Positions 13,384-18,912 of a stretch of 64,000 nt of DNA are shown piece after piece. The stretch comes from a virus: IMG/VR virus record IMGVR_UViG_3300022752_000024, positions 78,882 through 142,881 of that record. One strand, 5' to 3'. Both the position numbers and the translations under genes were made by a program. The notes under the pieces are model-generated. The model saw only the letters and a list, made by a program, of their open reading frames with translations. It was not told the origin of the DNA and did not search any database. Positions within the stretch are counted from its first letter, which is position 1. Each line of letters begins with the position of its first letter.

Positions 13384-14271
13384 TTAATCTTCTGCTGCAA
13401 GTTTGGCAAAGTAATCCATGTCATCATCTTCTGACTCCTCTAAGCTAGGTGCTGCTTTAGGTGCCACTTTCTTGATAACTGGTTCTGCATCTTCAACAGT
13501 TGTTTGTGGGAAAGAACTACCACCGTCTAGACCTAGAACTTTATCTAAACGTGCTTTCACTTGTTCATATGATTTGAACTTACTTGGGTCAATGATCTCT
13601 TTAAGAGAGTATTCAGACTTCCATACTTTCTCAAGTGTATCATCATCGTCAAGTAAAGCGGCAGGTGAATCAAATTCACATTTGTCGTAGTTTTGATAAC
13701 CATCGACTTTACGAATCTTCAGTTTGAAGTTTGCACCTTTCCACAAATCAAAAGGATTCATAGGCTTCTCATCTTCAAATTCTGGATTCATAGCACCATT
13801 GATTTTATCAAAAATGATTTTACCATATTTGAACAAAAAGACTTTACCATTGTTCTCTGGACGCTTAGGGTCTTCAACAACATAGATATTTGAAATATAC
13901 GATAACTTACGCTTCTGATCACGGGCAATCTTTTTGTTTGCTTCTATGCCTGAGTTCCATAGGTTTGTGTTGTGTTCACAAACTGGACACTTGTCATTGT
14001 TTGTAGTACGACAATCATCGATCAGCCAACCACCAGGACCTTGAAAGCCATGACGGAATACTTTGACCCAAGGTAAACCTTCATCGCCATCGGCAGGTGG
14101 CTCAGGTAGAAAACGAATAACAGCATAACCATTACCAGACTTATCTAGTTCTGGTTTCCAGTAATTGTCATCGGATGAATTTGATTCAGAATTTTGATTG
14201 AGTGATTCAATCGCTTTGGAAAGTTTGTCTAGGTTAGACGAACTCTTTTTCAATTTAGAAAAATCTGCCAT
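13384..14271 (-). CDS. 32: Single-stranded DNA binding protein gp32
   Basis: WKPELDKSGNGYAVIRFLP, HGFQGPGGW, CPVC, acidic tail DDDMDYFAKLAAED; start moved to MADFSKL after an AAGGAG RBS. Confidence 0.96.
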   Translation of the reverse strand: MADFSKLKKSSSNLDKLSKAIESLNQNSESNSSDDNYWKPELDKSGNGYAVIRFLPEPPADGDEGLPWVKVFRHGFQGPGGWLIDDCRTTNNDKCPVCEHNTNLWNSGIEANKKIARDQKRKLSYISNIYVVEDPKRPENNGKVFLFKYGKIIFDKINGAMNPEFEDEKPMNPFDLWKGANFKLKIRKVDGYQNYDKCEFDSPAALLDDDDTLEKVWKSEYSLKEIIDPSKFKSYEQVKARLDKVLGLDGGSSFPQTTVEDAEPVIKKVAPKAAPSLEESEDDDMDYFAKLAAED

Positions 14272-14389
14272 AGTAATCTCCTTATTAAACGGCGTATAAA
14301 CGGAATATAATCGACTTGTCCACAATGTATCTCATAATATTAAACTATTTAGTCTCAAATTGCAAGCACTATTTTACATATTTTTACTG

Positions 14390-15019
14390 CTAGGTAATGT
14401 ATGCCGAACTAGCATACAATTCTTTTAATTTTGCTTTGTACTTCATTTTATCATAAACAAGAAATGGAGTATACTTTTCTATCTTTTTTTGCCAAGTAGG
14501 CCAGATAATATCATCGTCAATCTTTTTTTTCCACATTGGTAAGAAGTTCATAATATCATTGAGTATTACCATAGTCTCTATGCATATTTTACTTGATGCC
14601 AATTCAGAAAGCAATATTGGAAACATACCTTGTCTTGGTTTAATAAGTTCTTCAGGATTATAATTATCCAACAAATAGGATACTTGATTTTCAAAAAGAT
14701 AGAACAATGACTGGTTACGTTTTTGCCATGTGCGGTATATTTCTTCTGCTTCTTCAGTAAGTAATTCTCCTACCCACTTAGAATCATTTACTAAAAAGTT
14801 TGCAACAAAAAAACTTCTACATTCTTCTAAGGAATATTTTCTAGATAATTTGTAGAATGAGTATTTGTTTTTATTGGTAAGAAAAGATTCTTTGGAAGTA
14901 TTAGTCTTACCGTTGTACTTAAAGTAATCATAGCTGTTGCTAATAAAATGCAACCTCAATGATTGATACATCATATAAACGGCTAGTCCTCCATTTTCAC
15001 TCATAGGGGTAGTCTGCAA
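14390..15019 (-). CDS. 59: Helicase loader gp59
   Basis: YQSLRLHF..YDYFKYNGK..FYKLSRKY..FFVANF; adjacent to gp32. Confidence 0.85.
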   Translation of the reverse strand: MQTTPMSENGGLAVYMMYQSLRLHFISNSYDYFKYNGKTNTSKESFLTNKNKYSFYKLSRKYSLEECRSFFVANFLVNDSKWVGELLTEEAEEIYRTWQKRNQSLFYLFENQVSYLLDNYNPEELIKPRQGMFPILLSELASSKICIETMVILNDIMNFLPMWKKKIDDDIIWPTWQKKIEKYTPFLVYDKMKYKAKLKELYASSAYIT

Positions 15020-15222: not shown

Positions 15223-15370
15223 ATTCTTTTAGTGTCCTTATTAATTCATCAATATCTTCATCATGCATAAAAATGGTAGAAGAAAATCTAAGACCATCTT
15301 CTCTTTCATCATCAATCTTAGTTAACAAAAACTGTTTACTGCCATATGGTGATATTTTAAATCTTATCAT
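15179..15370 (-). CDS. Hypothetical protein
   Basis: Coupled ORF between the SleB-like gene and gp33. Confidence 0.55.
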   Translation of the reverse strand: MIRFKISPYGSKQFLLTKIDDEREDGLRFSSTIFMHDEDIDELIRTLKEYGNERGNKRFQSVD

Positions 15371-15897
15371 GTGTTTGTATAAAATATGTGATTACCAATT
15401 TGCATTACAACATGCTTTTTATTCCAACCAGGACTAACATACTTTGCATGGTAAAACATTGCTTGAGTTCTAGCTAGTTTAACATGAGCGATAGGTTGTG
15501 TCAATGCTTTCATTGCAATATATTTGGATTCTTCCCAAAGATAGGCATTCTTTGCCGCAGGAACAGTCGTACATGTCCAACTAAACTGACAGACACTTTT
15601 GCCATTATAATTAGTTTTTTGATATACCACACCACATATGTTTACTGGATATTTACCTGAATTAGTTCGATTGATTGTCACCTGTGCTACTGCAAGCTTT
15701 CCTTCAAAAGATTCAGATCCTGCTTCATAGTAAATATTCTTAGCTAAACATTCCATTTCTTTGCTCATGTGTACTTGAATATCAGTATTGATATCTTGTC
15801 TCACTTGATATGGAAACGAATAGATAAGAATTACAGTAAAAAATAATATAGTAGCTATAAGCAGGTTGACACTTGTGAATATTTTATTTTTAAGCAT
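15367..15897 (-). CDS. Cell wall hydrolase, SleB/Hydrolase_2 family
   Basis: N-terminal TM; CLAKNIYYEAGSE..GKLAVAQVTINR..ICGVVYQ..CQFSW..IGNHIFY. Confidence 0.9.
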   Translation of the reverse strand: MLKNKIFTSVNLLIATILFFTVILIYSFPYQVRQDINTDIQVHMSKEMECLAKNIYYEAGSESFEGKLAVAQVTINRTNSGKYPVNICGVVYQKTNYNGKSVCQFSWTCTTVPAAKNAYLWEESKYIAMKALTQPIAHVKLARTQAMFYHAKYVSPGWNKKHVVMQIGNHIFYTNT

Positions 15898-15936: not shown

Positions 15937-16076
15937 TTGTCCCAATCAGGTAGACTTTTTGCTAGTAGTCTTTTCTGGTATGATATTTGAAACGAATCCG
16001 TTTAAGGATTGTGTTGTGTGTAAAAAGTGTGGTAGTGAGTTTATTTCTCAGGTACTCACTCGACCTGTGATATTAT

Positions 16077-16151
16077 TTAGCGATTTGCAATATACATGGA
16101 AATTTCAAAACCAAAACGCATATCTTGTGCTGAAGGTGTAGTCCATTTCAT
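16077..16151 (-). CDS. pqqA: Pyrroloquinoline quinone precursor peptide PqqA
   Basis: 24 aa MKWTTPSAQDMRFGFEISMYIANR with the invariant E-x-x-x-Y core; AAGGAG RBS 6 nt upstream; missed by ORF track. Confidence 0.95.
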   Translation of the reverse strand: MKWTTPSAQDMRFGFEISMYIANR

Positions 16152-16242
16152 ATCATTCTCCTTGATTTGTCATAGCAAAATACTACGACTATAATTATAT
16201 ATGCATAGTGTAACACGAATGTAATAATTAAAACCATTAAAA

Positions 16243-16555
16243 TGCAAGGTGATTGGGTAATAAGGACACCTTGCGAAACCCCAAGAGAATTAAGCCGCTA
16301 GGCGTTCATCTCCAAAATATGCATCGTTTGCATTTACTTGTTTTGCTCGGATTACGTCCGTCGCCTTTCGTGTTGCCTTCTCTATTATCTCACCCTGTCG
16401 AAACCAGGTCATCCCCATCAGAAGTACACAATCCCCGCTAGAGCCCTAAGAGGTTTCTTTCATCTAGGACAACTATGCACTTCTGGTGGAGATGGAGGGA
16501 ATCGAACCCTCGTCCAGAATGCCTTCACTTTGAAGGAATTACAACAATTCTAATT
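16243..16555 (-). ncRNA. ssrA: Two-piece (circularly permuted) tmRNA
   Basis: Acceptor piece ends GGTTCGATTCCCTCCATCTCCACCA (CCA end at 16484); then a spacer; then coding piece starting GGGGATGACCTGGTTTCGAC (16416). Acceptor stem GGGGAUG/CAUCUCC with G3:U. Tag ANDAYFGDERLAA* at 16331-16290. Outer ends approximate. Confidence 0.92.
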
Positions 16556-16682
16556 CTTGTATTTTATTTATTCATTGTAGCTATACAATAACCAAATACA
16601 AATGGATATCAAACAACCAATAGCTAACCCGATACAGAATCCAGTTATGTATTGTATCATTCTTTATTGATTATGTCAATGC

Positions 16683-17348
16683 TTATTTCGGTGTATTTTG
16701 GCGATAATACGTAATTACATCAATTAAACCATCAATATGATCTTTGACTTTTTCTTTGAAGATTATTGGAGCAGAATCTTTTACTGCCATAATGATAACC
16801 AGATTATCAATTGGAGTACCAATTAATTCTTCATACATCGAAGCATAAGCAGTAGTTTGCCAAAAATAGTCTAAAACATCTTCTTTTCTTTTTACTTTAC
16901 TAGATGTTTTAAAGTCTATTACAGAAAGTTCACCTTCATACTCTGCTATACAGTCAACACGACCTGCCATACCTAAAGTCTTAGACCACAATGCTTGTTC
17001 TTGATAATGAATGTTATCTATGTTGTCTAAGAAAGGTTTAATAGAGAGAAAATACTCAACAGCATCAGGCATGATGCCTCTCATATAATATGGTTCATTG
17101 TTGAGATAATTCTCACAGATAGTATGAACATTGGTACCTCTAGATGTAGCTTGTTTGGAGATTTTATTGGCTTCTTCTTCGCCAACTCTTGCTCTCCACT
17201 CCATGATAGCTTTTTTCTTTTTGGCTCCTACTACAGTGGTTACTGATGGCAACTTAGTACCATCAGGTAACTTGTAATATCTTTTCCCATCAGGAAAAGT
17301 TTCTGATTTTAAATCTTCTAGTTGTTTTGGTGGGCAATATGTAAACAT
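16683..17348 (-). CDS. PD-(D/E)xK exonuclease (conserved T4-like)
   Basis: LPSVTTV, RGTNVH, AGRVDCIAEYEGELSVIDFKTS, QTTAYA. Confidence 0.88.
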   Translation of the reverse strand: MFTYCPPKQLEDLKSETFPDGKRYYKLPDGTKLPSVTTVVGAKKKKAIMEWRARVGEEEANKISKQATSRGTNVHTICENYLNNEPYYMRGIMPDAVEYFLSIKPFLDNIDNIHYQEQALWSKTLGMAGRVDCIAEYEGELSVIDFKTSSKVKRKEDVLDYFWQTTAYASMYEELIGTPIDNLVIIMAVKDSAPIIFKEKVKDHIDGLIDVITYYRQNTPK

Positions 17349-18192: not shown

Positions 18193-18200
18193 TATTTATA
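18193..18200 (-). promoter_or_regulatory. T4-type late promoter TATAAATA
   Basis: Exact match 27 nt upstream of the mini-fibre gene. Confidence 0.75.
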
Positions 18201-18912
18201 AACCTAATTTTTCTTTTTGTGTAATATATTCTTTCACAAAACCGCTTCGAACAATGTCATCAGTACAAAACTTAATGTGTCCTACATTTTTAATATTTTC
18301 TAGAATTCTCACCGCATCATGCAATCCAGACTTCTCTTTCTTACTATTTAGATCGTTTTGATTATAATCTCCACATAATATGAACCTACAATTCTCACCT
18401 ACACGAGTTAATACCGTATCGATTTCGTGGAAAGTAGCTGACTGAAATTCATCAAACACAATAATACAGTTTCTAAATGTCAATCCACGAAGAAAGCTAG
18501 TAGTTTGAAACTCTATGATTTCCTTATTTACTAAGAAATGCCAAGCATCGCCTCGACCAATTAGTTCATTAACGATATTCATGTAAGGTTCTTGATATAT
18601 CTTAGCCTTTTCTTCAAGTGTTCCTGGTACAAAACCTAAATCTCTAGAAGGTACTGCCGAACGGATAATAATTATTCTATTATAATAAGAACTTTCATCA
18701 AGGAGTTCACTCAATCCTAAATACATCGCAAGAAACGATTTACCTGATCCTGCTGATCCAGATAATACAAGATTGTTACCTTCATCATATGCTAAAAAAG
18801 CTTTTTCTTGGTTCTCTGTTAGCGGTTTAATTTTCTTCAGAGTGAAATGTTGTGATTTGGCTTCTGCTGAGGCTGTTCTTTTTTTTGTTGCCAATTGTTT
18901 CTCCTTTACCAT
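18196..18912 (-). CDS. phoH: PhoH-like ATPase
   Basis: PLTENQ, GSAGSGKS Walker A, LGFVPG, TSFLRGLTF, DEFQ, TRVGENC, GDYNQND, DIVRSG. Confidence 0.95.
   Translation of the reverse strand: MVKEKQLATKKRTASAEAKSQHFTLKKIKPLTENQEKAFLAYDEGNNLVLSGSAGSGKSFLAMYLGLSELLDESSYYNRIIIIRSAVPSRDLGFVPGTLEEKAKIYQEPYMNIVNELIGRGDAWHFLVNKEIIEFQTTSFLRGLTFRNCIIVFDEFQSATFHEIDTVLTRVGENCRFILCGDYNQNDLNSKKEKSGLHDAVRILENIKNVGHIKFCTDDIVRSGFVKEYITQKEKLGL

Follow-up and report, generated by a model that had tools for sequence, protein, structure and literature searches.

The 64,000-nt window analysed here is taken from an IMG/VR virus record of 142,881 bp (bases 78882-142881), the completeness of which is put at 86% by CheckV. 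Its neighbourhood is T4-like and the neighbour genes listed in Table 1 all lie on the minus strand. A 24-codon ORF, here referred to as pqqA, is found between a two-piece tmRNA and the gene of an endolysin-like cell-wall hydrolase. The tmRNA scores 148 bits with the Rfam beta_tmRNA model (gathering score 84) and 153 bits with tmRNA_permuted, and ends 64 nt before pqqA. Neither a riboswitch, such as the glutamine riboswitch of the T4-like phage Melnitz, nor any other Rfam element was detected between tmRNA and pqqA at E <= 1, and no Rfam model matched pqqA itself.

Table 1. Features at and around pqqA, in window coordinates.
Feature	Position	Strand	Evidence and remarks
gp32-type SSB	13384-14325	-	
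gp59 helicase loader	14390-15019	-	
Cell-wall hydrolase (SleB-type Hydrolase_2, endolysin-like), downstream of pqqA	15367..15897	-	PF07486 E 3e-22; phrog_938, phrog_14642 (endolysin)
Perfect 7-bp hairpin GAGAGAC/GUCUCUC, UUCG loop	15919-15936	-	about 20 nt 5' of the cell-wall hydrolase ATG
60-codon TTG-started ORF, antisense over pqqA	15959-16141	+	
Hairpin (stem GAGUGAGU/ACUCACU) followed by U5 run	16018..16065	-	RNA fold; weak terminator-like; 12 nt 3' of the pqqA stop
pqqA	16077..16151	-	24 codons + TAA; translation MKWTTPSAQDMRFGFEISMYIANR
Shine-Dalgarno AAGGAG	16158..16163	-	6-nt spacer to ATG at 16151; sequence read
TATAAT -10 hexamer	16194..16199	-	42 nt 5' of ATG; alignment of nine sequences
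Circularly permuted two-piece tmRNA, directly upstream of pqqA	16216..16597	-	tag ANDAYFGDERLAA (ARAGORN)
Strong sigma-70-type promoter TTGACA-17-TACAAT with TG, 5' of tmRNA	16651..16679	-	promoter scan, 11/12 positions
PD-(D/E)XK exonuclease, phage core gene upstream of pqqA	16683..17348	-	phrog_298 E 2e-74; PF12705
PhoH	18196-18912	-	

The sequence-only reading had proposed a 24-residue PqqA precursor at this site, with a strong ribosome-binding site and an intact E-xxx-Y core, and this was borne out: its coordinates are right, the strand, which it had not given, is minus, AAGGAG precedes the ATG by 6 nt and both Glu16 and Tyr20 are present, four residues apart in E16-I-S-M-Y20. The HMM search it had suggested as a check places the peptide above the curated cut-offs of two PqqA families, with 31.9 bits (E 1.3e-7; gathering score 21.1) for Pfam PF08042 and 31.8 bits (cut-off 20) for NCBIfam TIGR02107; in a six-frame search of the genome for PqqA the window ORF scored 29.5 bits. 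In Methylorubrum extorquens, PqqE cross-links Glu and Tyr of PqqA while the leader is held by PqqD (PMC10906245), and Glu16 and Tyr20 of the window peptide have the same numbering as that cross-linked pair. PqqA peptides have a length of about 20-40 aa, into which the 24 aa of the window peptide fall, and PQQ is formed from their Glu and Tyr. The window peptide contains W3-x-x-P6, of which W3 and P6 are invariant across 16 distinct sequences collected by synteny. This W-x-x-P N-terminal leader is presumably the part of PqqA that is bound by PqqD. Residue 18 is Ser in the window copy only; all other viral and bacterial copies collected have Thr, bar one viral copy with Cys. The codon is TCC, as compared to ACA (Thr) in the closest relative, contig L249, of which the tmRNA tag is that of the window, and since this difference takes two nucleotide changes Ser18 is not a simple sequencing error. 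SD-like motifs precede 243 of 250 viral pqqA ORFs. Judged by its sequence, we take the window ORF to be a genuine PqqA gene.

Synteny was studied using the exonuclease as anchor, by which 204 viral relatives were identified; 80 loci were fetched, 74 of which extend at least 1 kb downstream. Among these 74 syntenic relatives pqqA is found in 23, a permuted tmRNA in 38 and both in 19. The order exonuclease-tmRNA-pqqA-hydrolase is present in all 11 closest contigs (exonuclease at least 81% identical). As these contigs derive from many samples and have one gene order, the junction is not an assembly chimera; the sequence-only reading had named a chimeric contig as a danger, which the order common to 11 independent contigs rules out. 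A megablast search with 12 kb around pqqA identified no close relative among GenBank phages. The tmRNA tags vary among the 38 of 74 related phages that have a tmRNA, with ANDEKFALAA, ANDERFALAA, ANDSSYEYALAA and others. In one close relative a rubrerythrin gene (PF02915, E 4e-27; L254:5739-6173, plus strand) with its own SD starts within about 12 nt after pqqA; it likewise follows pqqA in the close relatives L251, L252 and L255 and is absent from the window.

Selection was assessed with 16 distinct DNA sequences that were collected by synteny rather than by motif. In the PqqA frame pN/pS amounts to 0.23, and within the R-to-Y core to 0.09, as compared to 0.67-2.9 in the other five frames, which indicates that pqqA is under purifying selection as a protein. 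The values of 0.67-2.9 found in the reverse frames of relatives also identify the plus-strand ORF over pqqA as spurious and non-coding. No decayed pqqA remnants were detected in the syntenic loci that lack the gene: relatives have either an intact copy or no gene. An ORF of just 24 codons, this close to a tmRNA, could in principle have arisen by chance, belong to the tmRNA trailer as an RNA-level element or result from an assembly chimera with host DNA. We give this almost no credence: the HMM scores exceed curated cut-offs, substitutions fit the PqqA frame only, most viral loci listed have pqqA without a tmRNA and Rfam has no match over the gene. The gene order of the 11 contigs and the frame-specific substitutions effectively refute it.

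The signals 5' of pqqA differ between the window and most of its relatives. ATATATAAT is invariant in nine of nine aligned sequences, about 42 nt 5' of the ATG, and seven of these nine have TTGACA, which stands 17-18 nt upstream of ATATATAAT. A promoter that matches at least 11 of 12 sigma-70 positions is found 42 nt upstream of pqqA in 20 of 23 syntenic relatives (background 3.7%). The window has no promoter of at least 11/12 at pqqA's own site: in the window and in L249 the -10 element is kept and the -35 element is gone. The TATAAT of the window therefore reads as a remnant of a pqqA-specific early promoter. Given this loss, pqqA of the window is most likely transcribed by read-through from the promoter 5' of the tmRNA, and the copies of the window and L249 may be expressed at a lower level than those of their relatives. 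A pqqA-specific sigma-70 promoter was rejected as a general feature, since only about 4% of the listed motif-derived viral loci have one. The terminator-like hairpin 3' of pqqA was not called by a consensus terminator scan.

Six-frame searches identified no PqqB, PqqC, PqqD or PqqE in the 142,881-bp record, and no PQQ alcohol or methanol dehydrogenase, M16 peptidase or PQQ_2 propeller in the whole record either. In the control for the PqqC search, the standard control genomes gave no match and five of five pqqA-holding Burkholderiales genomes were positive. The sequence-only reading had reported no other pqq genes in the window and had advised a check of the remaining genome for pqqB-E; its statement holds across the entire record, given an estimated completeness of 86%. 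Hence, pqqA is not linked to pqqBCDE here. This is not disqualifying, since orphan pqqA is normal in Methylophilaceae (PMC4109929) and common at bacterial loci: a PqqB-like gene lies near pqqA at 105 of 257 bacterial loci and none is adjacent at 152. Among the matches listed, the flanks of 239 viral loci contain no PqqB-like gene, and neither PqqC nor a PQQ alcohol dehydrogenase was found in any of 42 larger viral records, four of which are at least 90% complete.

IMG/VR was scanned with the back-translated motifs RFGFEI(S/T)MY and RFGFEVTMY, which were detected in at least 119 and at least 120 contigs, respectively. Hence, pqqA is present in at least 239 contigs, which range from a few kilobases up to 364 kb. 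Among the matches listed the ORF is always intact and more than 100 distinct peptides are encoded; for RFGFEI(S/T)MY, 117 of 117 untruncated copies listed are intact, with more than 60 distinct peptides. Stand-alone pqqA is thus common in viruses. At the IMG/VR loci listed it often lies within or next to a tRNA array (up to 28 genes), or immediately 3' of a tmRNA. Where an RNA gene is within 500 nt of a viral copy among the matches listed, the nearest one shares the strand of pqqA in 26 of 31 cases.

A preference for RNA genes (23% of the listed viral copies have a tRNA or tmRNA gene within 200 nt, whereas for randomly chosen positions of these loci the share is 10%) would also be expected of a neutral passenger, a tiny host gene taken up with tRNA or tmRNA DNA in a hyperplastic region and of no benefit to the phage. 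The patchy presence, in 23 of 74 relatives, fits such a passenger as well. We nevertheless consider it unlikely, because purifying selection is frame-specific and pseudogenes are lacking, the SD-like motif is conserved and the syntenic clade has a dedicated early promoter. Moreover, the gene occurs in unrelated phage families that have only their host group in common, and pqqA of the hosts is mostly away from tRNA and tmRNA genes: of the 17 loci examined, one has a tRNA gene, at a distance of about 1.2 kb.

A tblastn search with the window peptide against 50,697 GenBank phage records matched 12 records: four Melnitz isolates, P19250A, Venkman, MEP301, MEP401, MEP402, MW202481 and two contigs of 'Acinetobacter phage MD-2021a'. 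The true phage matches are Methylophilales or Methylophilaceae phages of at least three kinds (Kyanoviridae, Zobellviridae and unclassified) and the spring-water phage MW202481. All phages with known host among these matches infect obligate methylotrophs. The match in CAKLQF020000010.1, from 'Acinetobacter phage MD-2021a', was rejected as phage pqqA since it has the bacterial operon order ppk-pqqA-pqqB-pqqC and looks like bacterial DNA under a phage name. The idea that every Methylophilales phage has pqqA was also dropped, since HIM624-A, phiMB624-A, MEP431-434, MG-MTP1 and RSA-MFP1, which are also listed in NCBI taxonomy, gave no match or are outside the collection. Six records were inspected (Melnitz EXVC044M, P19250A, Venkman, MEP301, MEP402 and MW202481), all with an unbroken ORF that has a purine-rich or SD-like stretch 5' of it. 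The annotations of P19250A, Venkman, MEP301, MEP401 and MEP402 show nothing at the pqqA match. In Melnitz and MW202481 an antisense 'hypothetical protein' has been annotated over it (MelnitzEXVC044M_152 and UOF77531.1, respectively). Being below the length cut-offs of gene callers, pqqA had escaped annotation in each of the cultured methylophage genomes that we examined. In the Melnitz paper PQQ is named only as a medium supplement (PMC9004378).

The cultured Methylophilales phages resemble the window phage in having a stand-alone pqqA of 23-24 codons with an SD-like motif and the core RFGFE-x-T-M-Y. Melnitz comes close in other respects, being a T4-like myophage with a two-piece tmRNA and a peptide 70.8% identical to that of the window, whereas its pqqA is beside a tRNA-Leu gene rather than the tmRNA. 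In the Melnitz genome (MZ577097.1) pqqA is at 76134-76205 on the plus strand and the tRNA-Leu starts 13 nt after it. The smaller methylophages have the Methylophilaceae type ..EVTMYVMNK, as opposed to ..EISMYIANR in the window.

Nearly all genomes with the FGFEVTMYVMNK form are those of Methylophilaceae, often with several copies each. Five such genomes contain 17 pqqA copies (1-5 each) that all encode the same 23-residue peptide MWTTPAATEMRFGFEVTMYVMNK, and P19250A encodes exactly this peptide. Four streamlined genomes have 3-5 identical copies each, and an incomplete OM43 assembly has one. The identity of all 17 peptides suggests either very strong constraint or gene conversion. Local G+C around these copies ranges from 34 to 54%. 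Beck et al. (2014, PMC4109929) reported that Methylophilaceae have 3-12 copies of pqqA for one pqqBCDEFG set, which argues that precursor dosage matters. The orphan copies of Methylophilaceae resemble phage pqqA in being detached from pqqBCDEFG; they differ in being chromosomal and identical within a genome, whereas the phage copies have diverse leaders. In OM43, xoxF is the most transcribed gene (PMC5120137).

The sequence-only reading had seen a Burkholderiales-type PqqA and thereby a hint at the host, which proved only loosely right. The core RFGFEI(T/S)MY..IANR is indeed typical of Burkholderiales in the broad sense, and the ..EI(T/S)MYIANR form of the window is nearest to Limnobacter, Rhodoferax and Oxalobacteraceae, which are other Burkholderiales. 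The exact type, on the other hand, occurs in no bacterial genome searched: an exact search with the C-terminal 17 residues of the window type (with Thr) in one genome per species gave nothing. In addition, the PqqA of Melnitz is unlike that of its known OM43 host and nearer to the window's peptide, so the peptide reflects the lineage of the phage in addition to its host and does not suffice to name the latter. The tmRNA does not name the host either. BLAST with the tmRNA in 401 Burkholderiales genomes gave short matches only, and the beta two-piece tmRNA model remained below its gathering score in the five candidate genomes (Rhodoferax, Limnobacter, a Burkholderiales MAG, Methylopumilus and OM43).

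Since the ..MYIANR type of the window resembles non-methylotroph Burkholderiales rather than Methylophilaceae, PQQ made from the phage peptide could serve other ends, such as glucose or alcohol dehydrogenases, redox protection or lanthanide handling; the rubrerythrin gene directly 3' of pqqA in several relatives would agree with this. Such a use is improbable, as all known-host phages with the gene infect obligate methylotrophs and the phage encodes no other PQQ-dependent function.

Novelty of a phage PqqA, which the sequence-only reading had implied, did not survive comparison with the literature. Coutinho et al. (2020, Microbiome 8:163, PMC7678222) described PqqA as an auxiliary metabolic gene in the T4-like Lake Baikal phage population VP_266, with 35% G+C, and read it as raising PQQ for methanol dehydrogenase; Baikal populations were also reported with methanol dehydrogenase and radical-SAM proteins. 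Compared by description, VP_266 and the window phage are both uncultured and T4-like, with about 35% G+C and a PqqA precursor gene. They differ in that the window record and 42 other pqqA-containing viral records lack PQQ alcohol dehydrogenase and PqqC. A 2026 survey listed viral pqqA, pqqD and pqqE among phosphorus-cycling genes (PMC13188868). Our literature search identified no published statement of the viral breadth of pqqA, of a strict absence of the enzymes, or of unannotated copies in cultured phages. Hence, three things appear to be new: the breadth of pqqA in viruses (239 viral contigs or more), the fact that the PQQ enzymes are strictly lacking, and the unannotated pqqA in cultured phages of OM43 and LD28.

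Taken together, phage pqqA is probably a translated auxiliary metabolic gene that provides substrate only; its expression, its processing by the host and its benefit to the phage are inferred. A host-type gene lies among phage genes (gp32 SSB, gp59 loader, PhoH, exonuclease and an endolysin-like hydrolase), and it is maintained by selection in phages, given the frame-specific pN/pS, the absence of pseudogenes and its presence in at least 239 viral contigs. We favour supply of substrate because selection acts at the protein level, conservation is highest in the Glu/Tyr core, unrelated phages of PQQ-dependent hosts have the gene and the hosts themselves amplify pqqA alone.

As we envisage it, PqqA would be made soon after infection; in the window phage its transcript probably begins at the early promoter 5' of the tmRNA, and most relatives would use the consensus early promoter that belongs to pqqA itself. 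The N-terminal leader of the peptide (W-T-T-P...) would be bound by PqqD, a host chaperone, upon which the host radical-SAM enzyme PqqE would join Glu16 and Tyr20 by a cross-link. PQQ would then be completed by proteases of the host together with PqqB and PqqC and be loaded into periplasmic quinoprotein dehydrogenases, for instance the XoxF methanol dehydrogenase in methylotrophs. One PqqA would be consumed per PQQ while PqqB-E turn over catalytically; the precursor is therefore the component expected to run out upon shut-off of host transcription. PqqA supplied by the phage could thus keep host respiration running during replication.

The proposal of a phage that contributes nothing but the substrate to be consumed is supported in part. 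Gene identity, phage context and the absence of pqqB-E stand, and supply of substrate fits every computational test performed, including selection, the intact core and leader and the recurrence in unrelated methylotroph phages. Against it weigh the Ser18 of the window copy, where other copies have Thr, and the loss of the -35 element in the window and L249. Moreover, pqqA is accessory, being present in only 23 of 74 syntenic relatives, and PQQ is a stable, reusable cofactor, such that a need for new synthesis within one infection is an assumption.

The phage peptide could also act as a decoy or inhibitor that binds host PqqD or PqqE unproductively and halts PQQ synthesis of the host, which could spare SAM and reducing power or block superinfection. 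Many phage leaders differ from the host's by 1-8 residues, and the unusual Ser18 of the window copy would suit a decoy too. Such a role is very unlikely: Glu and Tyr never vary and conservation peaks in the core (pN/pS 0.09), yet an inhibitor needs the leader only. Furthermore, the peptide of P19250A is identical to the substrate of its host family and loss of the host's energy supply would harm a lytic phage.

Supply of substrate has a parallel in the classic auxiliary metabolic gene psbA (D1 protein) of cyanophages. By analogy, both phages would encode the consumed, fast-turnover part of a host energy system and leave the rest to the host. The difference is that psbA encodes a structural protein of a complex, whereas PqqA is a RiPP precursor destroyed by host enzymes for a small-molecule cofactor.

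Stand-alone pqqA has been seen, with the enzymes absent, in T4-like, podo-like, sipho-like and jumbo-sized genomes. We consider it somewhat more probable than otherwise that it is a convergently acquired hallmark of phages of PQQ-dependent methylotrophs and related Burkholderiales. If so, the precursor peptide rather than the biosynthetic machinery would limit cofactor supply during infection, and this would be the clearest case of a virus-encoded RiPP precursor that feeds a host cofactor pathway. Cultured pairs exist, Melnitz or Venkman on OM43 strain H5P1 and P19250A on IMCC19250, which makes the hypothesis directly testable. Metabolic genes of fewer than 30 codons are routinely missed or mis-annotated in phage genomes. 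OM43 and LD28, methylotrophs through which algal production is connected to carbon remineralisation, have the PQQ-dependent XoxF methanol dehydrogenase as their main energy enzyme. If their phages supply the cofactor of XoxF by means of a 24-residue precursor only, that precursor would be the rate-limiting, fast-turnover part of PQQ synthesis, and pqqA would serve as a tiny, specific marker by which phages that infect PQQ users can be recognised.
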